A program made the position numbers and the translations under genes. Shown one piece after another: positions 14,729 through 43,814 of a stretch of 64,000 nt of DNA. Below the pieces are notes generated by a model, which ran no database searches, had not been told where the DNA came from, and saw nothing but the letters and a program-made list of their open reading frames with translations. Position 1 is the first letter of the stretch; every line of letters starts with the position of its first letter. Source of the DNA: an uncultured Gammaproteobacteria bacterium (lineage in GTDB: Bacteria; Pseudomonadota; Gammaproteobacteria; GCA-001735895); NCBI GenBank assembly GCA_964480635.1, contig CAYZQE010000001.1, forward strand, positions 8,812 to 72,811, written 5' to 3'.

Positions 14729-15775
14729 TTATCGTTTAGACGCCAGCTCTAATATTTTTTCTGCGATGCCATGTAAAGGCATTACAAAATCAGCATGACC
14801 TCGTTTGACGCATTCACCTGGCATTCCCCACACGACACTGGTCGCTTCATCTTGAGCAATGGTAGGTGCGCCTGCTGCTCGCATTGTACCCATCGCTTCA
14901 GAACCATCAGCGCCCATACCAGTGAGCATAATACACATTGCATTTTTGCCCACATTTTTAGCCACCGAGTTAAACATCACTTCAACTGAAGGTTTATGTC
15001 GATTGACTGGATCAGTATCGAGTAATCGACAAATAAAACGAGCGCCATCTCTAATCACTTCTAAGTGCTTATCACCTGGTGCGACATAAGCATGCCCAGG
15101 TAAAATTTGCTGCCCATTTTCAGCATGGTGCACTGTCATTGATGAATTAGCATCTAAACGCTCTGAAAATGACTGACTAAAAGCAAGTGGAATATGCTGT
15201 GTGATAACAATGCCGGGGCAATTACTGGGTAACTGGCATAACACATCTTTTAAAGCCTCGGTACCGCCTGTCGACGCACCAATAGCAATGACCATATCGG
15301 TCGTTTTAAAGCTGCTTGAACTAAAGGTTGATTGGGTAGCCGCCGTACTTTTGGGTACAGCAGCATTTAACCCCCTCACTTTTGCCATCGCCGCTGTTTT
15401 AACTTTTTGTTTTATCTCAGCGGCATAAGCCAGCATTTCTTCTTTTACGTTAACCTTTGGCTTAGACACATAATCAACAGCACCTAATTCAAGTGCCTCA
15501 AGCGTTACATCAGCACCCGCTTCCGTTAAGGTAGAAACCATAACCACTGGCATCGGACGAAGTCGCATCAAATTACGTAAAAAAGTGACGCCGTCCATTT
15601 TGGGCATTTCAACATCGAGGGTTAAAACATCGGGGTTTAATTTTTTAATTTTTTCGCGTGCTACAAGCGGGTCTTGCGCCGTACCAATGACTTCAATTTC
15701 TGGATCAGACGACAATATTTCCGTCATCAACTGACGAATTAATGCTGAATCATCGACTATTAATACCTTAACCAT
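14729..15775 (-). CDS. cheB: chemotaxis response regulator protein-glutamate methylesterase CheB (REC + methylesterase)
   Basis: An N-terminal receiver ([11 protein letters not shown]...D) is fused to a methylesterase domain with a GASTGG region. The protein is 348 aa. Confidence 0.9.
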
Positions 15776-15800: not shown

Positions 15801-16427
15801 TTACTGAAACATATCCACATCACCCGATGTATCTGATGAACTTAGTTTAGATTTATAACTCACTTCACGCTTAACAATTGTGTCGTTATGTAAATCCTTT
15901 AATTTTTTAACTCTAACTTTTCCTGTTAGAGGGTTATATAGTACCTTTCTTGGGTTTATGCCACCCACATCTTCAGCTTTTATGTCAAAACCTTCTAAAA
16001 CGATAAATGATTTAACAAAATCAATATTACTCTGACCAATATCAGTCATCGCTTGCATAATTCGAGAACCACCAAATATTTTTATTTCTAAATTTTCCTT
16101 TTTACCACCATGTTTCAGAATATCATTAATCATATGCTCCATGGCATAGTTACCATAACGAGTTGCTAAACTATCTAGCTCAGTTTTAGAGGTCCATTTT
16201 TCTTTATTCGTCAGCGGCAGTAAAAAATGATTCATTCCCCCAATACAGTTTACTGGATCACGAATACATGCCGATACACATGATCCTAAAACAGTTGTAA
16301 TGAGCTCTTTACTTTTACTCACATAATATTCACCTGGTAAAATTTTCGCAGCATAAACATCATTTCGTTTATCCCAATAACGATTTACGTGATTAAAGCC
16401 AGGCAGTATTTTAGGCAGGTCATGCAT
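15801..16427 (-). CDS. cheD: chemoreceptor glutamine deamidase CheD
   Basis: It is 208 aa and sits between cheR and cheB as in cheR-cheD-cheB (F7/Che2-type) clusters. It has a conserved Cys (GSCVSAC). Confidence 0.8.
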   Translation of the reverse strand: MHDLPKILPGFNHVNRYWDKRNDVYAAKILPGEYYVSKSKELITTVLGSCVSACIRDPVNCIGGMNHFLLPLTNKEKWTSKTELDSLATRYGNYAMEHMINDILKHGGKKENLEIKIFGGSRIMQAMTDIGQSNIDFVKSFIVLEGFDIKAEDVGGINPRKVLYNPLTGKVRVKKLKDLHNDTIVKREVSYKSKLSSSDTSGDVDMFQ

Positions 16428-16483: not shown

Positions 16484-17311
16484 CTATGATTTTTGATAGA
16501 TTGTTTTGCCAAGTAAATCATATTGTTCTGAAATACCATGTAGTGATTCTGAATGCCCCATAAGCAAATAGCCATTTTTTTTCAATTGATTATAAAAACG
16601 ACCAACTAGACTCACTTTGGTTTCTTTATCAAAATAGATCACCACATTGCGACAAAAAATCACATCCATTTTTTCATTAATCGACCAAGGCTTTAATAAA
16701 TTCATCTGGTTAAAGCGAACCAATGATTTAACTTTATCATTCATTTTAATAAAGCCAGCATTACTGCCCGCACCTTTTTTCATGTGCGTTTTAACACGTT
16801 TAGGGTCTAAACTATCAATCCGCTCTACATTATAAACGCCCGCCTTAGCCGTTTTTACGACATTAGAGTCAATATCAGTCGCATAAATTTTTATATCCCA
16901 TTGGTCAATATCTTTAATCGAATCAACTATGGTCATGGCAATTGAATACGGCTCTTCACCGGTTGAACACGCGGCTGACCATATGCGTATGCTTTTATCG
17001 TTGTTTTTTATTTTTTCAGCAACAAGAGTCTCCGCTAAAAAGTCAAAATGATGTTCTTCTCGATAAAAAGCCGTTAAATTGGTGGTGACAGCATTTACCA
17101 ATTCAATGCTCTCAGTTGCTAAGTTATTGGCTAAAAACTGGCGGTAAGCAGCAAAGTCTGGTAATTTTAATTTTCGTACTCGACGCGACAGACGAGAGTA
17201 ATACATGGTGTACTTGCCTTCATCCGAAATAATGCCTGTTTCTGTCTTAACAACTCCCCTTAAAAAATTAAAATCATCTTGAGTGAATTTAAATTCTTTA
17301 TCTTGCTCCAT
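16484..17311 (-). CDS. cheR: chemotaxis protein methyltransferase CheR
   Basis: It is 275 aa with a SAM-methyltransferase fold signature (IWSAACSTGEEPYS). Confidence 0.85.
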   Translation of the reverse strand: MEQDKEFKFTQDDFNFLRGVVKTETGIISDEGKYTMYYSRLSRRVRKLKLPDFAAYRQFLANNLATESIELVNAVTTNLTAFYREEHHFDFLAETLVAEKIKNNDKSIRIWSAACSTGEEPYSIAMTIVDSIKDIDQWDIKIYATDIDSNVVKTAKAGVYNVERIDSLDPKRVKTHMKKGAGSNAGFIKMNDKVKSLVRFNQMNLLKPWSINEKMDVIFCRNVVIYFDKETKVSLVGRFYNQLKKNGYLLMGHSESLHGISEQYDLLGKTIYQKS

Positions 17312-17313: not shown

Positions 17314-17877
17314 TTAAAAGAACTCGATATCGTTTTCTAAATCTTCTTTATGGGCTTCGTTGAAAGCATGAATCGCATCCCGCACATCGACACCATCCAT
17401 CACCGCTTGAAACATTTCAACTTCTTCACGCATGCTATATTTTGACTTTATTTTTTCTTGTAGCGCTTTCCATTCATAGGGGTTAAATATTTTCGACGTG
17501 TCGCCAACTAATTCTGACAACGCTTCTACGCTAGAACTTACATGCGCTAAGCGTTGGGTTAATTTATCGTAAAATTGAAAGGCAACAATAGCGCCTTGCA
17601 TTGTTTCACTTACTTTATCAGCATTATGAGCGATTGTTTTTCGTATCACTTCAGTTTCAGGTGTTGGTGGTAAATCTTCTACTGCCATTTTAATGACATT
17701 TTCATAACCGATCATGGAGGTAAAGGCATCGGTTAAATGCAGTACTGAATCATCACTTTCCCTTAATGCTATCTCAATTTGAGCGGTTGCTAAAAACAGC
17801 ATGCGAACAGTTTCTCTCACTTGGCTCCAGTCTAAATCGGGCGCTACCGCATTTGATGGCTTACTTTCACTACTCAT
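17314..17877 (-). CDS. acidic hypothetical protein (187 aa) embedded in the chemosensory operon; C-terminus ...DIEFF
   Basis: It is tightly packed between cheR and the STAS-repeat gene. It is helical and acidic, with an 'FQFYDKLTQR' segment faintly reminiscent of the CheZ active-site 'QDLTGQ'. I make no confident family assignment. Confidence 0.45.
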   Translation of the reverse strand: MSSESKPSNAVAPDLDWSQVRETVRMLFLATAQIEIALRESDDSVLHLTDAFTSMIGYENVIKMAVEDLPPTPETEVIRKTIAHNADKVSETMQGAIVAFQFYDKLTQRLAHVSSSVEALSELVGDTSKIFNPYEWKALQEKIKSKYSMREEVEMFQAVMDGVDVRDAIHAFNEAHKEDLENDIEFF

Positions 17878-17909: not shown

Positions 17910-18818
17910 TTAAAAAAACCCAGAACTTCCGTCATCTGCATCTTTAGGTGGCATATTTTCTTCGAAAAAACCAAAGCAGGCTTCTTTACTTTTAGGCGCT
18001 AAAATAGGCATTCCAATCATTTCTGCCGAATCATTAATGACCGTGCTAGTACCAATCCATTTAATATGATGCCCTGTCTGACTTAATGTTTCTTTTAGGC
18101 TATATAGCAACTGTAAGCCTGCTGTATCAATCTTTATCATTTCATCTGCATTGATTATTATTTCTTCATCGGCTGAGATCAAACTGGCGATTTGATCCTT
18201 TACTTCAGCAACTGTTTTTATCGTGAGCTCTGAACCTAAATTAATCGCATCTTCTTTTGAAATATCTAATGTTTCCATATTTGTCGCCTCTAAAACGCTG
18301 TTATCGTCGTCAGTAAAAAAACCAAAGCCATCTTCTGATGAGGTGTCCTCTACTTTAGGGCTATTTAACTCTTCTGCAAAAAAACCAAAACCATCTTCTG
18401 CTGATGTATCTTCTGCTTTAGATGTGACTGGCTCTTCTTTAAAAAAACCAAAGCCATCTTCCGACGAGCTGCCCTCTTCTTTAGAACTCTTTGATTCTTC
18501 TGAAAAGAAGCCGAAACCATCTTCTGCTGATGTATCTTCCACCTTAGAGTCATTTGACTCTTCAGTAAATAAACCAAAGCCTTCACTGCCATCGGTATTC
18601 GTTACTTCCTTAACAGCCTTATTCTTAGCTTTCTTTTTTACTGTTTTCTTTACCGAATTTTTAGCCGCTTTCTTTACTATTTTCTCTGTCTTACTGACCG
18701 CTTTTTTAGGCTTTGATGTTTTTTCAGTTGGCTCATTTTTACCTTCTGACGCGTCAGGCTCTTTTAACCATGCTAAAGGATCATAGTCTAAAACTGATTT
18801 TTTTTTCTTTTTAACCAT
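17910..18818 (-). CDS. repeat-containing STAS-domain protein: polybasic K-rich N-terminus, five 21-aa acidic repeats with a core EDGFGFF, and a C-terminal STAS (anti-sigma-antagonist-like) domain
   Basis: The repeats are read directly from the translation. The STAS signature is 'DTAGLQLLYSL'. The C-terminal tail carries two more FGFF/GFF motifs. Confidence 0.6.
   Translation of the reverse strand: MVKKKKKSVLDYDPLAWLKEPDASEGKNEPTEKTSKPKKAVSKTEKIVKKAAKNSVKKTVKKKAKNKAVKEVTNTDGSEGFGLFTEESNDSKVEDTSAEDGFGFFSEESKSSKEEGSSSEDGFGFFKEEPVTSKAEDTSAEDGFGFFAEELNSPKVEDTSSEDGFGFFTDDDNSVLEATNMETLDISKEDAINLGSELTIKTVAEVKDQIASLISADEEIIINADEMIKIDTAGLQLLYSLKETLSQTGHHIKWIGTSTVINDSAEMIGMPILAPKSKEACFGFFEENMPPKDADDGSSGFF
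18306..18593. repeat. tandem 63-bp in-frame coding repeats (about 5 copies) encoding the EDGFGFF repeat units
   Basis: The DNA shows near-identical units ttcttctgaaaagaagccgaaaccatcttctgctgatgtatcttc and ttctgcaaaaaaaccaaaaccatcttctgctgatgtatcttc. The shadow ORFs on other frames are artefacts of this repeat. Confidence 0.7.
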
Positions 18819-18820: not shown

Positions 18821-19312
18821 TTATTCCATTTCAGCTATCGTTTCAAACTCTTCAGAATCCAACAAACGTTCGGAATCCACTAACATGACCATATGTTCTT
18901 CTTTAGTCACCATGCCAATGACATAATCAGTATTAATCTTACTCCCCAAACTCGGAGACACTTTAATTTCATCTCGAGTCACCGACAACACGTCTGACAC
19001 GGCGTCTACAACTATACCCATCATGTGACCATCCTCTTCACCCACTGTTAATACAATAATGACCGTTGTAGGGTGATATTCAATATCATTAAGATTAAAT
19101 CTAATTCTTAAATCAACAATAGGTACAATGCTGCCACGTAAATCTAAAACACCTTTAATAAAATCAGGCGTATTATGTAATTCCCGTATTTTTTCCCAAC
19201 CTCTAATTTCCTTAACCTTCAGAATATCTATTCCATAGTCTTCTTGACCTAAGGTAAAGGTTAAAAACTCTAGCCTTTCATTTAGGTTATCGGTTTGATT
19301 TTGCTCTGACAT
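18821..19312 (-). CDS. cheW: chemotaxis coupling protein CheW
   Basis: It is 163 aa with a CheW-like domain (TFTLGQEDYGIDILKVKEIRG...GVLDLRGSIVPIVDLR). Confidence 0.9.
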   Translation of the reverse strand: MSEQNQTDNLNERLEFLTFTLGQEDYGIDILKVKEIRGWEKIRELHNTPDFIKGVLDLRGSIVPIVDLRIRFNLNDIEYHPTTVIIVLTVGEEDGHMMGIVVDAVSDVLSVTRDEIKVSPSLGSKINTDYVIGMVTKEEHMVMLVDSERLLDSEEFETIAEME

Positions 19313-19318: not shown

Positions 19319-21883
19319 CTAACCTTTTATTTTTTGCTCAATCGACGTAAGGTTTGCCACCACTTGCGTTGAGCATACAGTTACTTTGTTATATAGGTTT
19401 TCTGCGCTATCGCAATCGCCACCTTCCTTTGCATCAATAATAGCTGAAATATAGCTGTGCATTTCTTTATGCGTTTTTTCCATATCCAGCAATTCTTGAT
19501 GCTCGCCATAAACTCTTAAGCCATCGGCATACAACCATTTACCTAAATCGCAATGTCTATGTGACACGGCCTGCTCTTGTGTTAACTCTTCTTTATCATC
19601 TAGAAATTTTCTTAGTCGTTCTTTCCATGCTAAGTGCTTCGTTTTAGCTAATTTAAAGTCTAAGGTACTTGTGGCAACTGCTTTAACAATATCTGTTTTA
19701 AAGAACTGCATTTGGCCATTCATGGTATTCGACTGCTCAGACATATGTGTACTGGCTGCTGACGCTTCTTCTGCTAAAGCGGCATTTTGCTGTGTTAAAT
19801 CATCAAGGCCGGTTAGGGCTTTACTAACTTGATCAACCCCTGTTGATTGCTCGGCACTAGCCGCTGCAATTTCACCAACAATATCGCTTACTTTTTTTAC
19901 ACCTAAAACAATGTGACCTAATGTTTCACCTGATTCATTCACTAAGTCAGAACCTGCTTTCACCTTATTAACACTATCTTGAATTAACTCTTTAATTTCT
20001 TTTGCAGCGGTTGCTGAACGCTGTGCTAAATTACGCACTTCAGTTGCTACAACTGCAAAACCACGGCCTTGATCACCGGCTCTAGCAGCTTCTACACTCG
20101 CATTAAGCGCCAACAAATTAGTTTGAAAAGCAATTTCGTCAATGACGCTAATAATTTCTGCTATTTTACTACTCGATTGGTTAATCTCTTCCATCGCATT
20201 AATAGCATCAGCAACCACATGACCACCCTTATCTGCAGTGTCCCCTGCTTCTGCTGCTAATTGGTTTGCTTGCGCGGCATTACCCGCGTTTTGTTTTACT
20301 GTCGAAGTTATTTCTTCCATGCTTGCCGCCACTTCTTCTAGTGCAGTTGCTTGCTGCTCTGTACGGTTTGATAAATTATTGTTACCCGAAGCAATTTCTT
20401 GCGAGGAATTATTAATCTGATTCGATGAATCCCTAATGCCATTCACGATATCTCTTAATTTAACAATCGTCTTATTCACATTATCTTTAACTTCACCGAA
20501 CACACCATCATAAGCTCGATCAATCGTTTGCCCTAGATTACCACCAGCAACGCCTGACATAACTTGATTAACATCTGCAAAGGTTGCTTCTAACACATCC
20601 AACATTTCATTTAAGTTAACTGATAAATTTTTGAAAAAACCAACCTGGCTAGTCGCATTCAGTCGCGAACTTAAATTACCCGATTGAGCAGCAACCACTA
20701 GATGCTCAATCTCTTTTTCAAAATTACGCTCAATTGTTAAATCACGCCACTCCAAGATAGTGCCAACGCGCTGGCCATCTTGAATCACGGGACTCGAATT
20801 AATACTTAATACTCGACGACCTAATGACTTTTCTTCTGTATGACTATTTTTTAATCCATCTAATAATCGACGTTGTTTTACCGCATCATTATAAAAGATG
20901 TCTAAAGGTGTGCCCAAAAGTTTTTCGGCATTAAAGCCTGTTACTTGCTGAGAAATATCGTCAGTCGCATCTTTAAACATCGACTTAATCGTTTCATTTA
21001 AATAGATAATATTATAATTTTGATCAACTAACATAACGTTCGATCCCGCATTATCTAACGCTGATTGAATACGCTGGCCAGCTGTTGCTTTTTCACGCGC
21101 ATCCATCACATCAAAGCCTAAACGCACTTGCAATGTAAACAACCGTCTTAATAAACTACCCATATCATCTTTACGAGAAATATCAGTCCAGTTAAAATAT
21201 TCTCCTCGACTTATCTCTGATATTTTATCGTATAGATAGTCCATTGGTTTACTGATTTTTTTTACTAAAAAAATACCTAAGACCAAAAAGATAATCGCTA
21301 AACCTAACATTAGCTGAGCGACAAATATCACCTCGACCCCCCTCATCAATAGGATACTCATGAGTAACATGACGAGAGAGAAAAAACCGACTCCAATATA
21401 TTGAAGACCAACAGATGATAACGACTGAAACTTTTCTATTAACGCACCAAAGCCTGTTTTTGTTAAAGTTTCTTGGCCTGAATTAACCTGTTGATAAAGC
21501 TTTTCTGCATCGCTTATCTGTTGGTCTGTAGGTCGTGTTCTTACTGACATATACTCAACAATACTGCCATCCTGATAAATAGGCGACACATTGGCATTAA
21601 CCCAATAATAATCACCATTTTTAGCCCTATTTTTAATGGGTGCTGTCCATGGGATTTTCTTATTAAGATCATCCCATAAAGATTGAAATGCTTCTGATGG
21701 CATGTCTGGGTGTCGTACTAAATTATGATTCTTACCCATCAATTCGTCATAACTAAACCCACTAATTTCCATGAATTCTTTATTACAATAGGTAATAACC
21801 CCTTTTAAATTTGTTTTTGAAACCAAAATAGACCCTTCACGCATTTTGACTTCGTTATTCGTTACTGGCTCATTAACTTTCAT
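19319..21883 (-). CDS. methyl-accepting chemotaxis protein with an Aer-type N-terminal PAS (FAD) domain, TM hairpin, HAMP, second PAS, MA domain and a C-terminal CZB (chemoreceptor zinc-binding) domain
   Basis: The N-terminus ([33 protein letters not shown]...[16 protein letters not shown]) closely matches the E. coli Aer PAS. The MA tip is [30 protein letters not shown]. The C-terminus ([11 protein letters not shown]...H...H) is a CZB motif. Confidence 0.85.
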
Positions 21884-21908
21884 TCTTTAAATTCCTTAGA
21901 GTTAATTA

Positions 21909-24641
21909 TTAGAATTCATCCCAATCATCAGATGATTGTAAATCTATTCCTTTTTTGGCTACTGAATTTTTTGTTTCTATTTCGGGCTGCTTCTTTTCTG
22001 ACGGCTTCTTTTCTGGCTCTTCATCAAAAATCATTGGCTCATTAAAATGTACCCTTTTATTGTCTACATTTCCGCTGTCATCAATTTTAAAGAAGCTGAC
22101 ATCTTGTTGCATAATTGAAGACCGTTCTGACAAATTAATACTTGCTGCCGTCACTTCTTCCGCTAAAGTCGCATTTTGTTGAGTGAGCGTATCCATTGAT
22201 GTGATGGCAATATTGACTTCTTGAATGCCTTTTGATTGCTCTTCACTGGCTGCCGCGATTTCAGAAATAATGTCTACCACCTTTCTCACGCCAGTTTCAA
22301 TGTCAGCTAGCGATTGCCCTGAGTCATTGACAAGTTTTGACCCTGCTTCCACCTTAATAACACTATCGTTTATTAACTCTTTAATTTCTTTTGCTGCGGT
22401 TGCAGAACGTTGCGCTAAATTTCGAACTTCTGTTGCAACGACGGCAAAACCCCTGCCTTGATCACCCGCTCTTGCAGCTTCTACACTAGCATTCAGTGCT
22501 AATAAATTTGTTTGGAAAGCAATTTCATCAATCACACCGATTATGTCGGCAATCTTTGTGCTTGATTCATTAATCTGTGCCATCGCATCAATGGCATCAT
22601 GAATAACACTGCCACCCTCTTGAGCTATATGTTGGGCTTCTTTTGCTAAACCATTTGCCATTATTGAATTAGACGTATTTTCAGACACAGTTGCTGTTAA
22701 TTCAGCAATACTCGCGGCGGTTTCTTCTAAGGCTGCGGCTTGCTGCTCAGAGCGCATCGATAGATTTCCGTTACCTTCCGCGATCTCATTAGAAATTCCA
22801 TCAATCACACTGGCGCTGGTAATAATTTTTTTGGTTATTTCACGTAAATTGATGACGGTCTTAGCGGCTGCTTGCTCAACTTTGCCAAAAATGCCGACAT
22901 TGACTTCATTAACATCCTTTGTTAAATCACCTTTTGCGAGTGTTTGCATGGATTCGTTTAATGAATTTAAGGCGTTTTCGACAATGACTAATAGCTCATT
23001 AGTATTTGAGCTTAAGGTTGCAAAGAAACCTGTTTTATTAGACAAATCAATTTTAGTCGCTAAGTCACCCCCCATAGCAAGAGATACAACATTAGCAATC
23101 TCTGACTCCATAGAAATCTCTAAGGTTTTATCTTGAATTTCATAAACCTTACCAAGTAACTCTCCATCATCTGCAAAAATTTTATTTGAAGTAACCAATA
23201 AGGTATTACCCTGATATAACACTTTTTGTTTATCACATTCTTCATGCTCACTCAGAAAAACATCATGTGTTAACACACTACTTGCTGCGCCATTTTCTAG
23301 TGACAATTGATCAACTTTGTCATACAACTCTTGAGCCATGTTATTAACATAAACCACTTTATTTTTATTATCTATAACCAGAACATTCCCAGAAATGCTA
23401 TCTAATGCTGTTTTTACTCGTGCATTTTCACGTGAAATTAAACGCTCAGTATCAATACTGTCTTTCAATTCCTTTTGCATATGACCCAACGACTTGAAGA
23501 GTTGCCCAAATTCATCAGTCGATTTAACTATAATATTGTTATTTAAATTTCCTTTAGCAATTTCTTTGGCCAAACTAACCGCCCAATTTAATGAATGTGT
23601 AATCAAACGACTTAAGAACCAAGCGATCAAAAGCGCCATGACTATCACTACAACTAACACTATATAAAATTGTTTTGATTGAGCAGTGTAAATATTGTCA
23701 ACGTGTTCTTGGGCTAGCGATATGTTTTCTTTTTGACGATAAATTAATGCGTCTATTTTTTCTTTTATGCTCAGTAATAAGGGTGTGACTTGCGTTTTTA
23801 CAATGTAAGCGTCTTGACGCCATTTATCACTATTATGAAGCTCAATTAACTGACCAAAATTATTCATGAATTGTGTTTTTAAAGCTATAAATTGCTCTAA
23901 AGAGTCTGATTGATCTAAAGTTAATAAGTCATCATCATTTTGTAGTACCAACAACCTTTCGACCATAGCATCAACATTGCTGCTATATAACTTAATATTA
24001 TCAATAGCCGCGGGGGCTTTGAAGGCTAAAAATAAACGTAATTCAGTCATCACACTGGCCCAGCTATACCTTAATTTATGAATTAAAGTTATCACCTCTT
24101 TTCGCTCTTCAATGTATTCTTCTTCGTCTTCAGAGCTTAGCATTTGCCCTAATAACTGTAACAGCTCCCTATTTAAAGGGTTAATTTTTTCTTGGGCAAA
24201 GCCCACTGCCAAAATATTGAGATTATTGTCTTTCGATAAGGCCAACAACCTGGGTTTAATTTTTTGAATGGCCTCAACGTCAACGGCTATTTTATTGATT
24301 AATTCGACAGATTGTTGATCAGCCGCTATTGCCTTTTCTTTTTTTAGTGACTTCATGGTGATCGTGATACGGTTTAAACCCACCACAAAACTTTGTTCTT
24401 TATCCGCATCACCGGTCAGTAAATAAATACCCATCGCTCCAAAAACAGCTTCTATTTGGGCATTTAAAAGGCCTGCTTTTTCGACAGCCACTTGATTTTC
24501 AGTAGACACTGTTTGAAAGGTTTCATACACCAAATTTAAACTATTATTAGAACTGACGGCTTTTAGCACAAAAATACTAACGACCACCATAAAGCCTAAA
24601 GAAATTTTATATCGGATTGATAAATTATTAAAAAATTGCAT
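21909..24641 (-). CDS. methyl-accepting chemotaxis protein (910 aa): periplasmic sensor domain, HAMP, PAS, MA domain, and a C-terminal DDWDEF pentapeptide-like tail
   Basis: Two TM helices flank an approximately 300-aa periplasmic region. The MA tip is conserved. The protein ends in ...SSDDWDEF. Confidence 0.85.
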   Translation of the reverse strand: MQFFNNLSIRYKISLGFMVVVSIFVLKAVSSNNSLNLVYETFQTVSTENQVAVEKAGLLNAQIEAVFGAMGIYLLTGDADKEQSFVVGLNRITITMKSLKKEKAIAADQQSVELINKIAVDVEAIQKIKPRLLALSKDNNLNILAVGFAQEKINPLNRELLQLLGQMLSSEDEEEYIEERKEVITLIHKLRYSWASVMTELRLFLAFKAPAAIDNIKLYSSNVDAMVERLLVLQNDDDLLTLDQSDSLEQFIALKTQFMNNFGQLIELHNSDKWRQDAYIVKTQVTPLLLSIKEKIDALIYRQKENISLAQEHVDNIYTAQSKQFYIVLVVVIVMALLIAWFLSRLITHSLNWAVSLAKEIAKGNLNNNIIVKSTDEFGQLFKSLGHMQKELKDSIDTERLISRENARVKTALDSISGNVLVIDNKNKVVYVNNMAQELYDKVDQLSLENGAASSVLTHDVFLSEHEECDKQKVLYQGNTLLVTSNKIFADDGELLGKVYEIQDKTLEISMESEIANVVSLAMGGDLATKIDLSNKTGFFATLSSNTNELLVIVENALNSLNESMQTLAKGDLTKDVNEVNVGIFGKVEQAAAKTVINLREITKKIITSASVIDGISNEIAEGNGNLSMRSEQQAAALEETAASIAELTATVSENTSNSIMANGLAKEAQHIAQEGGSVIHDAIDAMAQINESSTKIADIIGVIDEIAFQTNLLALNASVEAARAGDQGRGFAVVATEVRNLAQRSATAAKEIKELINDSVIKVEAGSKLVNDSGQSLADIETGVRKVVDIISEIAAASEEQSKGIQEVNIAITSMDTLTQQNATLAEEVTAASINLSERSSIMQQDVSFFKIDDSGNVDNKRVHFNEPMIFDEEPEKKPSEKKQPEIETKNSVAKKGIDLQSSDDWDEF

Positions 24642-24674
24642 GAATTAAATCTCTCTCATCCTACTTATTATGAC

Positions 24675-27389
24675 TTAAAATTCTTCCCATTCATCAGCCG
24701 CAGGAGCAGATGGCTCTGGTATCGCTACTGGTGACGAAGTGGGCTTTGATTCACTAGAGGGTGCCTCTTTTTTCAGAGCAGAAGGTGCTTTTAAACTAGT
24801 CTGCGCATCAGATTCAGTTAATTTAAAGTACGTCATTTGCTCTAACATATCATTGGCTCCCTGTGTCATATTGACACTGGCTGCCGATGTTTCTTCTGCT
24901 AACGCTGCATTTTGTTGCGTCATCTCATCCATACTGGCTACCGCAGTATTCGCTTGTTCAATACCCGCTGTTTGCTCTTCACTGGCTGCTGCAATTTCGC
25001 CGACAATATCGCCTACTTTTTTAATGCCTTGAACAATTTCATCCAATGTTTCACCTGATTCATTCACCAAAGAAGAACCAATTTCTACTTTTTTAACACT
25101 ATCTTGAATGAGTTCTTTAATCTCTTTTGCAGCAGTTGCTGAACGTTGCGCTAAATTTCTAACCTCGGTTGCCACAACAGCAAAGCCTCTACCTTGCTCA
25201 CCAGCGCGGGCAGCCTCAACACTCGCATTAAGGGCTAATAGATTAGTTTGGAAGGCAATTTCATCAATCACTCCAATAATTTCTGCAATTTTGTTACTTG
25301 AACTATTGATTTCAGTCATCGCCTTAATCGCGCCTTCTACAACATCACCACCTTTATTGGCAACTTCTCTTGCCGATGCTGCTAAAATATTAGCTTGTTG
25401 TGCGTTATCTGAATTTTGCTTTACGATTGAGGTCAATTCTTCCATGCTGGCAGCGGTTTCTTCAAGAGCACTGGCTTGCTGATCTGTACGACCTGAAAGA
25501 CTATTATTACCCGAGGCTATTTCTGTTGATGCATTGGTCAAATCTGACGTAGAACTGCGTATTTCTCCAATCACTCGGGCAAATTGAACAATGGTTTCAT
25601 TCACATGATCGCTGACCTCGCCAAATGTTCCGCCATAATTATTTTCTATGTGTTTGGTTAAGTCACCGTGAGACAGTGCTGACATGACATTTTTAATGTC
25701 ATCTAATGTATTAGAAATTTCGGCAACCATGTCATTAATACCTTCACTTAAATTAAGGAAGAAACCTGATTTGCCTTGAGTTGCAATGCGTTGATCTAAA
25801 TCACCAGATTTAGCGGCGACTACTATTTGTTCGATTTCTTTTTCGACATTAACTTCTATTGTTCTATCTTCCCATTCCACTACGGTACCAATACGCTCAC
25901 CGTCATCACTCACAACAGGGTTCGCAATAAATCGCATATTATGACCGCCAACAAGAAAATCAGCTTCATGACGCGACTCTAACATTTTAACCAAGCCTCT
26001 TTGGTAACTTGACTCTTTATTAAAAATATCCATATTTGAGCCAACCAAGCTATCAACTGAAAATGCGGGTAAATCTTTAACAATACCTTCTTCTGCATTT
26101 CTAAACATAGAAATAGCAGCATCGTTCATATAAATAATGTCATTTTTTTGATTCACGAGCATGACATTTGCGCTGACATTATCGAGAGCCTGTCTAATAC
26201 GTGAATTCTCTCGACTAATGACCGCATCACTTTCAATGCGCTCTTTAAGGCCTGTTTGCATCGTCTTTAACGAGCCCAACATATTACCCAATTCATCCGT
26301 ACTATTGACGGTGATAGCCCCTGTTAAATCACCCTTAGCTATTTTTTGTACCATATTTAATGCACTAGCAACCGACTCTCTAATGCCTTTTTGGACGATA
26401 TAACCTAAAAACAATGTAATCAGAATTGAAAAAATAGACACTAATGCCGCTGAAATCAATGTCGAGCTTGCTGTATCGCCCATTTCTTTTGATTTATTAA
26501 TTAATGATGTCGTTAAGCTATCTGCAACTTTATTTAATAAATTGATTTTTCCAGTTTGCTGCTGAACCCATTCATCTGGCTCTATGCCAAAAGCACCGTA
26601 ATCTGATGCTTCAAAGGCCTTAGCCCTCATTGCGGCCGTTTTATCAACATATTCACCAACCATTGTGGCGATATAAAGTTCTTTTTGTTGAGCGCTTGCC
26701 AACGAAAGGTAAACGCTTTCATAAACATTTTGCCCGTTGACCGCATTATTAAAATCTGAAAAATTAGCACCTACAAATTGATCGTTTTTAAACACTTGGG
26801 CAAGCACTTTACGCTCTGTAATGGCTAAACTTTTTATGTGTAAAAAATTAGAATAAGATGCCGAAATAATCGCGGCTTCTTTACTGGGGCTCATGGCGGG
26901 TAATAAGCCAATCACATCAAGTAAACTTGAGCTCAGTTGCTTATAAAATGCTGCCGCTTTATTGCGTTTTAATTTTTTATTGTTAATAGCGCTGCGCTTA
27001 TCGTCAATAGTTGCTAACATTTCTTGAGAGCTAGCAACTTGTGCGCTAAAGACATCCGTTACTGCATTATTATCTATGTCATTTAAGGCACCTTTTAGAT
27101 TACTAATGGCTTTATTAGTGTTGCCTCGAGCATTCTCTATTTCTTCGCCAAACTTTTTACCTCTGGCTCTTTGGTACTTTTCGGTAATATTTTTTTCAAT
27201 AACCAATACATCCAATAGCTTATTCGTTGCAATAGCCATTTCAATTAAATTGCTCATCGCCGCAGCTTCTGACGCTGTGTTTTGTGCATTTAGAAACTGT
27301 TTACCCGAAAAAAATACTAAGCTAACTAATGGAATGATTAACATCAATCCTAGTTTTTTACCCAATTTCATATTATTAATTAAATTCAC
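24675..27389 (-). CDS. methyl-accepting chemotaxis protein (904 aa): large periplasmic sensor (NIT-like?), HAMP, PAS, MA domain, and a C-terminal ADEWEEF tail
   Basis: Its architecture resembles the preceding MCP. It ends in ...PAADEWEEF, which resembles the GWEEF CheR-tethering pentapeptide of Pseudomonas McpB/Aer2. Confidence 0.85.
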   Translation of the reverse strand: MNLINNMKLGKKLGLMLIIPLVSLVFFSGKQFLNAQNTASEAAAMSNLIEMAIATNKLLDVLVIEKNITEKYQRARGKKFGEEIENARGNTNKAISNLKGALNDIDNNAVTDVFSAQVASSQEMLATIDDKRSAINNKKLKRNKAAAFYKQLSSSLLDVIGLLPAMSPSKEAAIISASYSNFLHIKSLAITERKVLAQVFKNDQFVGANFSDFNNAVNGQNVYESVYLSLASAQQKELYIATMVGEYVDKTAAMRAKAFEASDYGAFGIEPDEWVQQQTGKINLLNKVADSLTTSLINKSKEMGDTASSTLISAALVSIFSILITLFLGYIVQKGIRESVASALNMVQKIAKGDLTGAITVNSTDELGNMLGSLKTMQTGLKERIESDAVISRENSRIRQALDNVSANVMLVNQKNDIIYMNDAAISMFRNAEEGIVKDLPAFSVDSLVGSNMDIFNKESSYQRGLVKMLESRHEADFLVGGHNMRFIANPVVSDDGERIGTVVEWEDRTIEVNVEKEIEQIVVAAKSGDLDQRIATQGKSGFFLNLSEGINDMVAEISNTLDDIKNVMSALSHGDLTKHIENNYGGTFGEVSDHVNETIVQFARVIGEIRSSTSDLTNASTEIASGNNSLSGRTDQQASALEETAASMEELTSIVKQNSDNAQQANILAASAREVANKGGDVVEGAIKAMTEINSSSNKIAEIIGVIDEIAFQTNLLALNASVEAARAGEQGRGFAVVATEVRNLAQRSATAAKEIKELIQDSVKKVEIGSSLVNESGETLDEIVQGIKKVGDIVGEIAAASEEQTAGIEQANTAVASMDEMTQQNAALAEETSAASVNMTQGANDMLEQMTYFKLTESDAQTSLKAPSALKKEAPSSESKPTSSPVAIPEPSAPAADEWEEF

Positions 27390-27449
27390 TCTTCCACCTT
27401 TCTTACTTTAAGTTTTTACTTTTTTGTATTATATTTTCATGACTGAGTT

Positions 27450-27959
27450 CTATTCTTCTTCTATCTCAACAACTTCATCATATAAATCAGGTGATTTTAA
27501 AAATTCAACGGCATCAAACAGCATGACCATTTGTCCATCTGAATCAGCTAGACCCTTTATAAAGTCAACATCAATACGGTCTGAAAACTCTGGAGTTTTT
27601 CTTATTTTACTTTTTTCAGCATTCAGAACATCTGAAACAGCATCAACAACAATACCTGCAATACGCTCTTTTTCTTGAACTTCGCCTCGCAAAATAATTA
27701 AGACTGTTGTTGCTTCATAAGTCACATGCTCACAATGGCTTTTCATTCTCATATCAACGATGGGGACTGCTGTACCACGCAAATTAAGAACGCCTTTGAT
27801 ATATTTTGGTGTATTAGGAACTCGGGCTACCGACTCCCATCCTCTTATTTCTTGAACACTCAGTAATTTAACACCATATATTGACTCACCAACTGTATAG
27901 GTTAGATATTGTTCAAAGTCTTCATTTTGAGATAAATCCTGGGTTGCTTCTTCACTCAT
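27450..27959 (-). CDS. cheW: chemotaxis coupling protein CheW
   Basis: It is 169 aa with a CheW-like domain. Confidence 0.9.
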   Translation of the reverse strand: MSEEATQDLSQNEDFEQYLTYTVGESIYGVKLLSVQEIRGWESVARVPNTPKYIKGVLNLRGTAVPIVDMRMKSHCEHVTYEATTVLIILRGEVQEKERIAGIVVDAVSDVLNAEKSKIRKTPEFSDRIDVDFIKGLADSDGQMVMLFDAVEFLKSPDLYDEVVEIEEE

Positions 27960-27961
27960 TG

Positions 27962-30076
27962 TTATGCCGCCACATCAGTTTTATCGCTCTTCTTTTCAAG
28001 CTTTTTGTTCAGAGTTAAAATCCCGGGCATATCGATAATAAGCGCGACAGAACCATCACCTAAAATAGTGGCCCCTGAAAAACCTTCTATTTTTTTGTAA
28101 TTACTTTCTAATGATTTGATCACCACTTGCTGCTGCCCTAGTAATTCATCAACAAACAAACCTACGTGTTTGTTTTCAACTTCAACAACTACCAATAGCC
28201 CATCTTTTAGATCAACAGGTTTTTCTAGTTCAACACCAAAAATGTCATGCAGCTTTATAATGGGGACGTATTCTTCTCGTAGCTTGAATGTTTCTCCCTG
28301 CCCCCCAACCATATTGACCATATCAGGTTGTATTTGGATTGACTCTACAATTGAAATAATAGGGATAATGTAATTTTCATTACCAACAGAGACTGTTTGT
28401 CCATCGACAATTGCTAGGGTTAATGGCAAACGAATTCGCATTGTACTGCCTTTTCCTAACGCTGAATCAATCTCGATTGAGCCCCCAAGCTCTAAGATAT
28501 TTCGACGAACCACATCCATGCCAACACCACGGCCAGACACATCACTAACAACCGCAGCTGTTGAGAAGCCCGGCAAGAAAATCAATTCAAATATTTGACG
28601 ATCAGTTAAAATATCACCTTCGATAATAAGCCCCTTTTCGACTCCTTTTTTATATAAAACATCCTTATCCATACCTTTACCATCATCGATAATTTCGATA
28701 ACAATATTACCGCCTTGGTGATAGGCATTTAAATTTATTGTTCCTAACTCTTCTTTACCTGCTGCCACACGATCTTCTGGCATTTCAATACCATGATCTA
28801 AACTGTTACGCACAAGATGTACGAGAGGGTCACCAATTTTTTCAATAACTGTCTTGTCTACTTCAGTTGCCTCACCCGAAAGAATCAATTCTATCTTCTT
28901 GCCCATTTTTCCTGATAAATCACGAACCAAACGTGGAAAACGTGAAAAGGTAAAACTAATCGGCATCATTCGAACTTGCATCACGCTTTCTTGCAGCTCA
29001 CGTGAATTACGCTCTAACTGCATCAAACCATCGCGTAAACGGTCTATTTCAGCGACATCAATTGATCCTCTTTCTTCAATGTTTTCACCAATTAAACCTA
29101 GCATTGATTGAGTAATCACTAACTCACCCACCATATTGATCAAAGCATCAATTTTATCGGTATCTACTCTTATAGAGGCATTAGCTTGAGCTGCTGGTTT
29201 TTTACTTCCTCTTCGGTCATTCTTACGGCGATCACCACCTTTGGCCTTTTCACTGTCTGCACTATCACCATCTCTTCTTTGAGGAATGGGTAATTGTGAC
29301 TTTTCTGCCGGCTTCACCCCATCTGCTTGTGCATTGCCATCTTGTAATGCAATAATTTCTAAATCACAAAGGTCTTCAACCCAAGCAAAAATCTCACTGA
29401 GCACATCTTTATCTGCATCCGTTATTATTTTCAATTCCCAACTGATATAACTTTGTTCAGCATCGAGCATTTCAAAGGGCGGTATCGCATTTAAATCTGT
29501 TGTCAGCTCTACTTCACCTAGTGATGAAAGCTCTCTTATTAATGGTAATGGATCATTACCCGTATGAAAAATATCGCTGTTTGGCTTAAACTTTATCAAC
29601 CAACCTTGGCCAGGCGAGTCACCTGCCGTTACGGCTTTAGTAGGAGCGTTTGTTTCTTCTTTAGCCGCTAAATTTTCGCCAGCAGCTTCATTACCCAGTT
29701 CTTTTTCGAGCATTGCTTTATGCTCTTTAACACGTGCTTCGTCTGGGTCATCGCCTTCTTGCGCGGCTTCTAGCATTTCTCTTAAACAGTCGGTTGACTT
29801 TAATAGAAGGTCTGAATTTGCAACAGTAACATCACGCTTACCATCTCGCATTTCATCAAGAAGCGTTTCCATGACATGGGTAAACGAAGCGACTTCCATA
29901 AAGCCGAAAGTACCCGAACCACCCTTTATAGAATGAGCGGCTCTAAAAACACTATTAATAACCTCAGAATCAGCTTCACCTGGCTCTAAATCCATTAATC
30001 CGGTTTCCATAATTTCGATGCCTTCGAAACTTTCTTCAAAAAACACCTGATGAAACTGAGCCATATCTATCGACAT
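27962..30076 (-). CDS. cheA: chemotaxis histidine kinase CheA (P1-P5)
   Basis: It has a P1 HPt (FRAAHSIKGGSGTFGF), P3 dimerisation (IRVDTDKIDALINMVGELV), a P4 HATPase with G1/G2 boxes, and a P5 CheW-like domain. Confidence 0.9.
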   Translation of the reverse strand: MSIDMAQFHQVFFEESFEGIEIMETGLMDLEPGEADSEVINSVFRAAHSIKGGSGTFGFMEVASFTHVMETLLDEMRDGKRDVTVANSDLLLKSTDCLREMLEAAQEGDDPDEARVKEHKAMLEKELGNEAAGENLAAKEETNAPTKAVTAGDSPGQGWLIKFKPNSDIFHTGNDPLPLIRELSSLGEVELTTDLNAIPPFEMLDAEQSYISWELKIITDADKDVLSEIFAWVEDLCDLEIIALQDGNAQADGVKPAEKSQLPIPQRRDGDSADSEKAKGGDRRKNDRRGSKKPAAQANASIRVDTDKIDALINMVGELVITQSMLGLIGENIEERGSIDVAEIDRLRDGLMQLERNSRELQESVMQVRMMPISFTFSRFPRLVRDLSGKMGKKIELILSGEATEVDKTVIEKIGDPLVHLVRNSLDHGIEMPEDRVAAGKEELGTINLNAYHQGGNIVIEIIDDGKGMDKDVLYKKGVEKGLIIEGDILTDRQIFELIFLPGFSTAAVVSDVSGRGVGMDVVRRNILELGGSIEIDSALGKGSTMRIRLPLTLAIVDGQTVSVGNENYIIPIISIVESIQIQPDMVNMVGGQGETFKLREEYVPIIKLHDIFGVELEKPVDLKDGLLVVVEVENKHVGLFVDELLGQQQVVIKSLESNYKKIEGFSGATILGDGSVALIIDMPGILTLNKKLEKKSDKTDVAA

Positions 30077-30274: not shown

Positions 30275-31474
30275 ATGCAAAAGCACAGTGTAAAAATAGG
30301 TAATATTTTTGTTGGTGGGAATCATCCCGTCATGATCCAATCAATGACCAATACAGATACTGCTGACATTAATAAAACAGTAGAGCAAATTAAAGCTTTA
30401 GCTGATGCGGGTTCTGAATGCGTGCGGGTGACGGTTAACAACAATGAATCTGCTGCTGCCATACGTCCTATTAAAGAAAAGCTGTTACAACAAAATTACA
30501 CCACACCTATCATTGGTGACTTTCATTTCAATGGACATAAATTATTAAAAAAATATCCTGAGTGCGCTGAGTTTTTAGATAAATACAGGATCAACCCAGG
30601 CAATGTTGGCAAAGGAAAAAAAAGAGACTCTCAATTTCATGAAATGATTGAAACTGCTTGTCAATTTAATAAACCTGTCCGCATTGGGGTCAACTGGGGG
30701 AGTTTAGACCAATCCCTTTTAGCGAATCTTCTGGATACTAACTCTGCTTTAAAAATACCGAAACCTTTAACCGACATCAATAAAATTGCGGTTATTCAAT
30801 CAGCCCTTGAGAGTGCAAAAATGGCTGAACATATTGGTTTAGGTAAGGATCAGATTATTATTAGTTGCAAAATGAGCCGAGTGCCTGACTTAATTGATGT
30901 GTATGAAAAATTAAACGCCCAATGTGACTATGCCTTACATTTAGGTTTAACTGAGGCGGGCATGGGCAGTAAAGGCATCGTATCTTCTACTGCTGCACTG
31001 TCTATTTTACTCAGGCAAAACATAGGTAACACGATTAGAATCTCGTTAACACCTGAACCTGGTGAAGCCCGAACAAAAGAAGTGCAAGTGGCTCAAGAGA
31101 TATTACAATCACTCGATTTACGATCGTTCACACCGAGTGTTGTTTCATGCCCCGGTTGTGGTCGAACGAGCAGTGAGTATTTTCAAGTGCTTGCTAAAGA
31201 TATTCAGCAACAGCTCAACGACAATATGTCTAGCTGGAAATACAGCCATCCAGGTGTCGAAAAAATGAACGTGGCGATTATGGGCTGCGTTGTTAATGGC
31301 CCAGGTGAAAGCAAACATGCCAATATTGGCATTAGCCTACCGGGAAATGGAGAGCTACCTGTCGCACCTGTTTATGAGGATGGTAAAAAAACAGTCACCT
31401 TAAAAGGTGACTCAATTGCTAATGAGTTTATGCAGTTAGTTGAAAATTATGTCGCTCGAACTTATTCGCAATAA
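30275..31474 (+). CDS. ispG: 4-hydroxy-3-methylbut-2-enyl diphosphate synthase (IspG/GcpE)
   Basis: Conserved IspG blocks are [49 protein letters not shown] and YEDG. It is on the opposite strand to all flanking signalling genes. Confidence 0.85.
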
Positions 31475-31506: not shown

Positions 31507-31812
31507 TTAAAGGATATTCAAAATCTCACAAGCCACTTCAAATTTAATAGGCACTGATCCTTCAATAGGAATAGAGCGAATAACAGATGCTCTTGCTTCC
31601 ATAGGCGGCGTAATCGAATTAACAGGCGTCAACTTCACCAATAATTCTGACTTAGGCTCAAACTCATCTTCTAACTCTAATAAAAAACCTTTCGCGCTTA
31701 AATTTTTAACACCACCTTCACCTGATCGACTATCTGCCTCACAGCAATACGTCATGACACATTCAATGGCCATCCTTTGGAAGTCGCGTTTTTCATCATA
31801 ATTATGATCCAT
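31507..31812 (-). CDS. single-domain PilZ protein (c-di-GMP binding)
   Basis: It has the RxxxR motif (RDFQRM) and the D/NxSxxG motif (NLSAKGF). It is 101 aa. Confidence 0.6.
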   Translation of the reverse strand: MDHNYDEKRDFQRMAIECVMTYCCEADSRSGEGGVKNLSAKGFLLELEDEFEPKSELLVKLTPVNSITPPMEARASVIRSIPIEGSVPIKFEVACEILNIL

Positions 31813-31827: not shown

Positions 31828-32142
31828 TTAAATTTTAAATAATTTACCAAAGTTGGCAACGTCTAATATTTTTTTAACATCTACGGATGTATTAACAATA
31901 TCAACTTTAGAGCTTTCCCCACCTGCATGTTCTCTCAGTAATAAAAGCATACCTAAAGCGGAGCTATCTAAATATTCAGTCGCCGACAGATCGACAACAT
32001 AATGCACACCATTCCCATCTGTTTCATCATATGATGTTCTAAATTCATCATATAACTGAAAGTCAAACTTACCTGATACTGATATTGTTACTTTTTTACC
32101 GCCATCTGCGATCGTACTATTTATTGCCATCAATGACTCCAT
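31828..32142 (-). CDS. STAS-domain protein (SpoIIAA-like anti-sigma factor antagonist)
   Basis: It is 104 aa and carries the conserved phosphorylatable-Ser region 'VDLSATEYLDSSALGMLL'. Confidence 0.7.
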   Translation of the reverse strand: MESLMAINSTIADGGKKVTISVSGKFDFQLYDEFRTSYDETDGNGVHYVVDLSATEYLDSSALGMLLLLREHAGGESSKVDIVNTSVDVKKILDVANFGKLFKI

Positions 32143-34255: not shown

Positions 34256-34618
34256 CTAACCCAAAGCGCGTTTTATCACTGACAGCAATTGGTCCGGATT
34301 AAAAGGCTTTACAATCCAACCAGTAGCTCCGGCATTTTTACCTGCCATTTTCTTATCTGCAGCTGATTCGGTTGTAAGCATTAATAAAGGAGTGAATTTA
34401 AAACTAGGTAGCTTTCTTAACTCTGCGATAAGAGATATACCATCCATATTTGGCATGTTTACATCCGTTATCACTAGATCAAAACTCTTTGTTTTCGCAA
34501 TATTTAATGCGACCAACCCATCTTCGGCATCAGTCACATCATAACCAGCACTTTTTAATGTAAATGAAACCATTTGTCTCATTGATGCTGAATCATCAAC
34601 AGCTAAAATTGTAGCCAT
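34256..34618 (-). CDS. single-domain response regulator (CheY-like receiver)
   Basis: It is 120 aa with a REC domain. Its residues include DD (ILAVDDS), the phospho-acceptor D (LVITDVNMP) and the T/K pair. Confidence 0.8.
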   Translation of the reverse strand: MATILAVDDSASMRQMVSFTLKSAGYDVTDAEDGLVALNIAKTKSFDLVITDVNMPNMDGISLIAELRKLPSFKFTPLLMLTTESAADKKMAGKNAGATGWIVKPFNPDQLLSVIKRALG

Positions 34619-43763: not shown

Positions 43764-43814
43764 GCAACCTCCATAGCATTGCATTGTGTTTTACAGCAAC
43801 TGCGCTAAATTAAC

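Follow-up and report, generated by a model that had tools for sequence, protein, structure and literature searches.

A STAS-domain protein of an F7-type chemosensory cluster as a candidate partner of the cluster's ParA-like ATPase

What does a STAS protein with a largely disordered, motif-rich N-terminal part do inside a chemosensory operon? This question is raised by a gene at 17910..18818 (minus strand) of a 64-kb stretch of DNA from an uncultured gammaproteobacterium (64,000 nucleotides of contig CAYZQE010000001.1; here referred to as the window), where it lies within an F7-type chemosensory cluster, between a cheW gene and the genes of the adaptation enzymes. The arrays formed by the ancestral F7 systems of gammaproteobacteria are distinct, and their function is as largely uncharted as their cell biology (PMC7184735). 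It is proposed here, with a probability of roughly 60% as judged from sequence comparison, that the protein is the cognate adaptor or activating partner of the ParA-like ATPase encoded in the same cluster. It would most likely link the sensory array to this ATPase rather than serve primarily as a decoy for the adaptation enzymes. The gene, its parts, and the proposed ATPase gene are as follows.

17910..18818, minus strand: whole gene for a 302-aa STAS protein, N-terminal two thirds disordered (open reading frame (ORF) list; identical gene called in an independent assembly)
18759..18818, minus strand: residues 1-20, MVKKKKKSVLDYDPLAWLKE, basic N-terminus and invariant DPLAWL peptide, the proposed ParA-binding or -activating peptide
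18603..18758, minus strand: residues 21-72, Lys-rich, histone-H1-like disordered tract with 18 Lys and a net charge of +12 (composition; predicted local distance difference test (pLDDT) score 46-51)
18291..18602, minus strand: residues 73-176, five acidic 21-aa repeats with G-F-G-(F/L)-F cores, encoded by 63-bp tandem DNA repeats
18003..18266, minus strand: residues ~185-272, STAS domain with a SpoIIAA/RsbV-like fold (Pfam, AlphaFold2, Foldseek)
17913..18002, minus strand: residues 273-302, disordered tail with CFGFF and the C-terminal SSGFF-COOH
33458..34228, minus strand: ParA-like (ParA/MinD family) ATPase, the proposed cognate ATPase (Pfam AAA_31, CbiA, MipZ, ParA)

The gene starts with ATG. 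An earlier reading of the letters alone (the sequence-only reading) had pointed out the Lys-rich N-terminal segment, the acidic repeats and their tandem DNA, the STAS domain, and the two FGFF/GFF motifs of the tail, all of which are borne out above except that the EDGFGFF core assigned to every repeat occurs in four of the five, the first being SEGFGLF. It overlooked what is now the strongest clue to function, i.e., the invariant DPLAWL peptide and the linkage to a ParA-like ATPase.

The family was delineated by a word-indexed search, which gave 49 homologues, and by a full profile search that covered 1.84 billion representatives and gave 55 proteins at E<=1e-30 and 458 at E<=1e-10; motif statistics were taken over the 179 family proteins examined. 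All close homologues share a basic N-terminal stretch followed by VLDYDPLAWL, a variable linker, and the STAS domain, and residues D13, P14, L15, W17, and L18 are invariant in 42 homologues. The N-terminal peptide, which reads MVKKKKKSVLDYDPLAWL in the window protein and is disordered in the AlphaFold2 model, follows the consensus (K-rich)-[VL][LI][DG][YH]DPLAW[LM]-x-[ED] and is the best-conserved part of the protein outside the STAS domain. A DPLAWL-type peptide is found in 140 of the 179 proteins, at a median position of 13 and with ~3 Lys/Arg among the 14 residues before it; the members without it are mostly fragments or bare STAS proteins. The Lys-rich tract is not conserved: depending on the homologue, the first 80 residues contain anywhere from 5 to 30 Lys+Arg. 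In a clade with a W-G-L-F version of the aromatic motif (STAS genes L028-L036), a long Lys-rich tract precedes LGHDPLAWI, placing the peptide up to ~50 residues from the N-terminus, whereas in the window protein the tract follows the peptide. The DPLAWL peptide therefore need not sit at the extreme N-terminus. Taken over the family, the N-terminal peptide and the STAS domain appear to form the defining core, with the peptide far more general than the aromatic motif.

The assignment of the STAS domain is backed by profile and structure. Residues 192-270 match Pfam STAS_2 (E=6.7e-9, 36.2 bits, cut-off 29.2) and Pfam STAS (23.9 bits, cut-off 22.6), both above the gathering scores. In a stand-alone AlphaFold2 model built on a 42-sequence alignment, block-mean pLDDT is 87-95 over residues 191-270 and falls to 72 and 70 in the flanking blocks 181-190 and 271-280, respectively. 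A Foldseek search of this model against the PDB returned SpoIIAA, RsbV, and other anti-sigma factor antagonists as top matches (1thn_B, 6m36_B, 4hyl_A; probability 1.00, root-mean-square deviation ~2.1-2.2 Å over 77 residues), with MlaB lower. Everything beyond the STAS region and its flanking blocks stays at pLDDT ~45-64, so that the disorder check suggested along with the sequence-only reading came out as expected; ~200 residues are predicted to be disordered, and a three-residue helix is modelled at residues 16-18. Docking of the aromatic motifs on the protein's own STAS domain was considered and is not seen in this model, in which the motifs have a pLDDT of ~45-51.

The second line of evidence is the genomic neighbourhood. 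In all 24 loci of more distant family members (L023-L046, made up of L023-L027 and 19 further metagenome loci), the gene immediately preceding the STAS gene encodes a ParA-like ATPase. The parA stop codon overlaps the STAS start codon in all four loci of this set with called genes (L023, L024, L026, and L027), and the pair is found in two layouts, namely, cheW-parA-STAS-cheR-cheD-cheB and cheY-cheA-parA-STAS-hypothetical gene-methyl-accepting chemotaxis protein (MCP) gene. The ParA of the window cluster is 47-51% identical to the ParAs of L023-L027 and only 27% identical to the window's other, ParC-like ATPase, which belongs to a neighbouring F6 cluster. It is therefore regarded, on the basis of these identities, as the probable ortholog of the STAS-adjacent ParAs, relocated to a position after cheY. 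In the clade of the window, parA is within the same cluster in six of the six loci in which the upstream part is visible (the window, L010-L012, L021, and L022). Two Sedimenticolaceae loci (L015, L016) carry a bare ~113-aa STAS protein at the same position, with neither DPLAWL nor the aromatic motif, and no parA was found within 10 kb of it in either locus. This joint absence of peptide, aromatic motif, and parA would count in favour of a ParA partner.

ParA/MinD partners exert their effect by means of a short N-terminal peptide that is positively charged and disordered (PMC7993993, PMC10241942). In ParB, an aliphatic and basic motif turns helical within a hydrophobic pocket of the ParA dimer (PMC12462528). 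The gene for a partner usually follows that of its ATPase directly, and parC genes that overlap with those of their partners have been described (PMC10241942). The STAS protein shows the corresponding features: its peptide is short, conserved, positively charged, and disordered, and thereby fits the published rule for basic N-terminal peptides; and a ParA ATPase gene stands directly upstream in the distant loci and in the same cluster, although not adjacent, in the window clade. It is because all features of such partners that can be checked in sequence are present that the protein is read as a ParA partner.

From the way in which the protein is built, the fact that both motifs are conserved, the STAS fold, and the linkage of the STAS gene to parA, we infer the binding events and the ATPase stimulation of the following mechanism. 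The extreme N-terminus, i.e., the Lys run and VLDYDPLAWL, would bind the ATP-bound dimer of the ParA-like protein and stimulate its ATPase activity. Attachment to the array would fall to the folded STAS domain, probably via CheA or CheW, by analogy with CheS of Sinorhizobium meliloti, which consists of a STAS domain alone and binds CheA (PMC12654446). The acidic x-[FYW]-G-[FL]-F motifs of the disordered region may add multivalent low-affinity contacts, for which CheR/CheB (through the pentapeptide pocket), another array protein, or self-association are candidates, and the Lys-rich tract may contribute non-specific nucleoid binding, as the tail of FrzCD does. Taken together, a ParA gradient would govern how the F7 array is assembled, where it is positioned, and how it is inherited.

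One family member, P0042 (L018 211-1500), is an in-frame fusion of CheW and a STAS-family protein, encoded on a 2-kb metagenome contig with the junction ...MALQ-LRVKN-MVKKSARKK.... This fusion is the only direct hint that the STAS domain is an array-binding module and lends weak support to that role. It was not retained as Rosetta-stone evidence: it stands on a single contig, the junction is five codons long, an out-of-frame TGA is nearby, and the fusion could be an indel error.

Several observations weigh against this proposal. In the clade of the window itself, parA is located ~15 kb upstream, after cheY, and is not adjacent to the STAS gene. Its stop codon overlaps the start codon of the gene for the McpA-like small MCP (at 33458), an arrangement that recalls ppfA-tlpT. 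In this lineage, the MCP may thus partner the ATPase in place of the STAS protein or alongside it. Even with this overlap, the N-terminal peptide of the latter is still invariant in the window clade. Many of the 24 distant loci come from a few related metagenome samples and do not represent 24 independent events. The core of the DPLAWL peptide is acidic or aromatic, in contrast to the Arg/Lys-centred core of ParB. Moreover, the role of the aromatic repeats is left unexplained by a ParA-partner model.

Comparison with known systems places the protein in none of the groups of ParP, TlpT, McdB, PomX, or CheS, since it has no CheW-like or MCP domain and is not a bare STAS protein. ParP of the F6 systems of Vibrio and Pseudomonas is alike in being the partner of a ParA-like ATPase in a chemotaxis cluster, with an N-terminal ATPase-contacting region, a disordered linker, and a C-terminal array module (PMC5706961). 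However, that module is CheW-like instead of STAS (no CheW match is found in the STAS protein with Pfam), ParP has no aromatic repeats, and its similarity to the STAS protein is limited to the basic N-terminus. The ATPase of ParP also belongs to another ParA subfamily, as reflected in the 27% identity between the two ATPases of the window. TlpT/PpfA of Rhodobacter sphaeroides, ParB, MinE, PomX, and McdB likewise contact their ATPases with a short, basic, disordered N-terminal peptide, while the remainder serves the cargo (PMC7993993, PMC10241942, PMC12462528). None of TlpT, ParB, MinE, PomX, and McdB has a STAS domain, a DPLAWL core, or x-Φ-G-Φ-F repeats. McdB uses a C-terminal aromatic residue for cargo binding.

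CheS of S. meliloti and Agrobacterium is also a STAS accessory protein encoded in a chemotaxis operon, but the likeness lies in the shared fold: CheS is a bare, alphaproteobacterial STAS protein of ~100 aa with no ParA link, disorder, or motifs, as opposed to 302 aa with ~185 disordered N-terminal residues and a 30-residue tail here. SpoIIAA and RsbV resemble the protein in fold, as the best structural matches, and in having Ser/Thr at the acceptor position, and differ from it in that two thirds of the latter are disordered and motif-rich and its context is chemosensory and ParA-linked. The tail of FrzCD of Myxococcus xanthus is a basic disordered tail on a chemosensory protein that binds the nucleoid non-specifically and recruits signalling complexes (PMC5716589). 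FrzCD is a receptor, however, and the Lys-rich tract of the STAS protein is lineage-specific, with nucleoid binding, by this analogy, as a candidate role at most.

The literature searches returned nothing on DPLAWL or GFGFF-type motifs, on a parA-STAS module, or on this architecture, in line with the earlier remark that no characterised chemotaxis component is built in this way. The main evolutionary study of F7 systems lists STAS genes and mentions neither a ParA-like ATPase nor this protein (PMC7184735). The protein is thus apparently a conserved, so far undescribed accessory component of the F7-type operon and, as far as sequence can tell, it would rather probably represent a new type among the known partner proteins, that of a STAS-based ParA partner with multivalent aromatic motifs. 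If this holds true, the conserved parA-STAS module reveals how F7 arrays are positioned and inherited, a STAS-based architecture joins the short list of ParA/MinD partners, and one of the enigmatic STAS proteins of chemosensory operons is given a first concrete role. The two motifs are sharply defined and easily mutated, which makes these hypotheses directly testable, and the adjacent parA-STAS genes on a Methylomonas metagenome contig (L026) make cultivable methanotrophs a natural test ground.

The other members of the cluster are listed here in the order in which they are encountered from the GGDEF gene to cheB.

34788..35783, minus strand: GGDEF diguanylate cyclase, just upstream of cheY
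34256..34618, minus strand: cheY
32250..33458, minus strand: McpA-like small MCP, ending in EIELF
31828..32142, minus strand: small STAS protein
31507..31812, minus strand: PilZ protein
30275..31474, plus strand: ispG (GcpE), in opposite orientation between the PilZ gene and cheA
27962..30076, minus strand: cheA (cluster region 19319..30076)
27450..27959, minus strand: first cheW of the cluster
19319..21883, minus strand: third receptor, with PAS domains, an MCP signalling domain, and a C-terminal CZB (zinc-binding) domain; no pentapeptide, unlike its two neighbours
18821..19312, minus strand: second cheW of the cluster, followed after 2 nt by the STAS gene (Pfam CheW E=3.6e-35)
17314..17877, minus strand: conserved 187-aa protein ending in DIEFF, 32 nt downstream of the STAS gene (no Pfam match)
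16484..17311, minus strand: cheR (Pfam)
15801..16427, minus strand: cheD (Pfam)
14729..15775, minus strand: cheB (Pfam)

ORFs and Pfam matches agree with the order cheW-STAS gene-hypothetical gene-cheR-cheD-cheB given by the sequence-only reading, and its mention of two neighbouring MCPs that end in DEWEEF and DDWDEF (two PAS/HAMP receptors within 19319..30076, minus strand) and of an adjacent hypothetical protein that ends in DIEFF is likewise correct. The F7-like nature of the operon also stands: cheY, cheA, two cheW genes, an Aer2-like PAS/HAMP receptor with pentapeptide, cheR, cheD, cheB, a McpA-like receptor, and STAS are all present, the class being assigned by comparing gene content with the description in PMC7184735 and not by CheA class-specific models.

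The order cheW-STAS gene-(187-aa protein)-cheR-cheD-cheB is kept in 14 of the 17 genome loci and on the contigs L021 and L022; the remaining three loci (L013, L014, and L017) have a different STAS gene beside cheY-cheA. The records of these loci are mostly metagenome-assembled genomes of uncultured Gammaproteobacteria, the exceptions being two Sedimenticolaceae and three records labelled 'bacterium', Proteobacteria, or Pseudomonadota. On L021 and L022, which are fully gene-called, synteny runs from FliK, GGDEF, cheY, the parA-like gene, the McpA-like MCP, the small STAS protein, PilZ, an inverted ispG, cheA, and cheW through optional receptors to cheW, the STAS gene, the 187-aa protein, cheR, cheD, and cheB, followed by housekeeping flanks. 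The order from cheY to cheB is the same in L010-L012. As ispG is called in both L021 and L022 and size-matched gaps occur in five further loci (L004, L006, and L010-L012), it is considered a conserved part of the locus. The GGDEF and PilZ genes are conserved in L021, and PilZ also in L022; a cyclic di-GMP link for the F7-like system, replacing the serine phosphatase of stage-1 F7 clusters, is suggested. The N-terminus of the McpA-like MCP is basic and then hydrophobic.

The aromatic motifs have to be described before the alternatives are weighed. The five repeats of the window protein start at residues 80, 101, 122, 143, and 164, a spacing of exactly 21 aa, with EDGFGFF in repeats 2-5. At the DNA level, repeats 2-5 are 65-79% identical to each other, and Tandem Repeats Finder reports a period of 63 with 4.3 copies (18313-18581) as well as a period of 126 with 81% matches. 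In a six-frame scan of the window for [FYW]G[FYW]F, restricted to ORFs of >=100 aa, all five matches fell in the STAS gene (5/5). The gene in the independent assembly shows 0 nucleotide differences, so the repeat array is no assembly artefact. An identical gene is called on Logan contig L047 (2494-3402), while the 302-aa protein is absent from the protein collection by exact-sequence look-up; the absence is probably an indexing gap and not biology, as the neighbours P0050 and P0299 are indexed.

Among close homologues, mostly 1-5 acidic [FY]GFF copies stand before the STAS domain, with none in P0040, P0041, P0043, and P0049, and the C-terminus is almost always G[FY]GFF-COOH, replaced by SSGFF in the nearest clade of the window. 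Some distant members have 3-6 copies of a W-G-L-F motif, e.g., DDGSWGLFGDDE, and others have no aromatic motif or a terminal AAGFF alone (Methylomonas-type relatives). Over the 179 proteins, the internal motif has the profile [ED][ED][DE]x[GA]-[FYW]-G-[FL]-F-x-[DE][DE], in which the conservation of Gly at motif position 3 and Phe at position 5 is built in by the search pattern, and 79 of the proteins end exactly in [FYW]G[FL]F-COOH. The motif is kept across relatives of 27-67% identity while its copy number ranges from 0 to 6. Because of this retention in divergent relatives and the C-terminal placement, the repeats are regarded as a selected short linear motif of variable valency and not as neutral sequence. 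Of the conservation that the sequence-only reading had asked for in orthologues, that of the GFGFF-type core is thus found, and that of the repeat number is not.

The alternative that survives best, although it is unlikely, is that the receptor pentapeptide is imitated by the x-[FYW]-G-[FL]-F copies, which would turn the protein into a multivalent tether or decoy for CheR and/or CheB, either as a docking platform on the array that works in trans or as a buffer for free enzyme. Such a role is compatible with that of a ParA partner. In receptors, the pentapeptide tether (NWETF, GWEEF) is an acidic, aromatic five-residue motif on a flexible linker, and GFGFF, GYGFF, and DWGLF fit its residue rule xZxxZ (Z = F/W/Y), being flanked by acidic residues and set on a flexible linker (PMC7390727, PMC7184735). 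The Asp/Glu residues after the internal copies could stand in for the terminal carboxylate, 79 proteins end exactly in the motif, and the STAS gene lies two genes upstream of cheR. The CheR of the cluster has the Gly-rich loop KGAGSNAG, a type of loop that we take to be typical of pentapeptide-dependent CheRs. GWEEF is a ligand of both F7 enzymes of P. aeruginosa, CheR2 and CheB2 (PMC7698151). In some clusters (L010-L012, L021), which are without an xWxxF receptor, the STAS protein is the sole carrier of an xZxxZ-type ending.

The differences from a receptor tether are considerable, however. The carrier is a non-receptor protein without an MCP signalling domain (Pfam), disordered and flexible as its context is; the motif is mostly internal and repeated, with Gly always at position 3 and mostly Phe/Tyr at position 2, a position dominated by Trp in real pentapeptides (PMC7390727). 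The internal copies of the window protein fit the rule in residues and not in position, and its terminus, S-S-G-F-F, has Ser at position 2, so that it lacks the critical aromatic residue, as does the Methylomonas-type AAGFF. Many members without an aromatic motif keep the same place beside cheR, and xWxxF receptors are present in clusters both with and without STAS repeats; a complementarity between receptor pentapeptides and STAS repeats was looked for and not found. In an AlphaFold2 model of a fusion with CheR (91 CheR homologues), CheR reached a pLDDT of ~90 while the repeats stayed at 33-40 and formed no strand, but the run came without positive control, peptide alignment depth, or coordinates, so the model would be weak negative evidence against docking. 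With no sign of docking in this model and a C-terminus that breaks the pentapeptide rule, the earlier idea of a decoy or scaffold for CheR and CheB is conceivable but found no support. If the aromatic repeats do bind CheR or CheB, the concept of the pentapeptide tether reaches beyond receptors.

A combined version, in which one scaffold with a ParA-activating peptide and trans-acting pentapeptide-like sites both positions the F7 array and recruits or buffers CheR/CheB, or a reader of Φ-F-COOH ends, is a long shot at present. If true, it would be the first case in which tethers of the CheR/CheB type have moved away from receptors to an adaptor for positioning.

A reader of such ends is conceivable in view of three cluster proteins that terminate in Φ-F-COOH behind acidic residues or Gly, namely, the STAS protein (GFF), the 187-aa protein (D[IV]E[FL]F), and the McpA-like receptor (EIELF). 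The corresponding ending of McpA was bound by none of the P. aeruginosa CheRs (Ortega et al., PMC7184735), and a separate reader shared by the three proteins is therefore conceivable. The 187-aa protein belongs to a family of >1000 homologues with no Pfam family, in which the motif AFQFYDKLTQ is invariant and the C-terminus D[DE][IV]E[FLM]F-COOH nearly so, an ending of the same kind as those of McpA-like receptors (EIELF, EIEMF). It was considered as a CheZ-like phosphatase, as QFYDKLTQ recalls the D-x-x-x-Q of CheZ, and this was not supported upon comparison with the window's CheZ by hhalign (probability 0.1); a profile search of the PDB gave one weak match, to a designed coiled coil (E=8e-4), and nothing else below 0.3. 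It was also rejected as an obligate reader of the aromatic motif, since two of the clusters whose STAS protein bears the motif lack the 187-aa protein (L004, L025). A homologue of the latter in Zoogloea is an orphan outside any che cluster.

According to another explanation, the protein is a condensate scaffold, in which the adjacent positive and negative blocks (net charge +12 over residues 21-72 and -24 over residues 73-176) and the 14 Phe of the acidic block acting as 'stickers' would phase-separate and concentrate F7 proteins. The ~200 disordered residues suit this model, and McdB and other ParA partners are reported to phase-separate. The charge pattern is not conserved, though, as the Lys-rich block is missing in ~1/3 of homologues and stands on the other side of DPLAWL in other clades, and many members have no aromatic repeats, which makes the model improbable as an account of the family.

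Still less probable is a partner-switching anti-sigma factor antagonist, the STAS domain of which would be (de)phosphorylated at Thr232, sequester an anti-sigma factor kinase, and link the output of the system to transcription. SpoIIAA and RsbV are the nearest structures, and Thr232 aligns with Ser58 of SpoIIAA (alignment of the D-[ST]-x-G motif) and is Ser/Thr in 81 of 86 core members (94%). Anti-sigma factor antagonists and a serine phosphatase have been reported for stage-1 F7 clusters (PMC7184735). Among distant members, however, the acceptor position is Ser/Thr in only 41 of 69 (59%) and Gly or Ala in 25 of 69. MlaB-type STAS proteins have the same D-[ST]-x-G motif without a known phosphorylation switch. 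The sequence-only reading had suggested looking for a SpoIIAB- or RsbU-like partner elsewhere in the genome; within the window, the Pfam-scanned ORFs (the flagellar/F6 genes at ~43.4-55.2 kb being unscanned) include neither an RsbW/SpoIIAB-type kinase nor a PP2C phosphatase. The N-terminal peptide, the repeats, and the ParA linkage are all left unexplained by such a switch. Finally, a neutral low-complexity expansion, with the repeats as functionless slippage products, could draw on the copy number of 0-6 and on the tandem DNA with its 126-bp period, which suggests a recent two-unit duplication, but appears already largely refuted by four core residues that are kept at 27-40% identity while the spacers change freely and by the real signals of Asp/Glu flanks, exact C-terminal placement in 79 proteins, and an independent W-G-L-F variant.

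An F6-type flagellar chemotaxis cluster (38064-43784, minus strand) adjoins the F7-like one and includes a cheW gene and the following genes.

38730..39482, minus strand: ParP-like protein
39451..40260, minus strand: ParC-like ATPase
40551..42608, minus strand: 685-aa ORF, presumably cheA
42634..43380, minus strand: cheZ (Pfam 1.2e-68)
43377..43784, minus strand: 135-aa ORF, presumably cheY

The window thus holds two pairs of a ParA-like ATPase and a known or putative partner. The N-terminus of the ParP-like protein, MKKIKPSKLLDAN, loosely resembles MVKKKKKSVLDYD.

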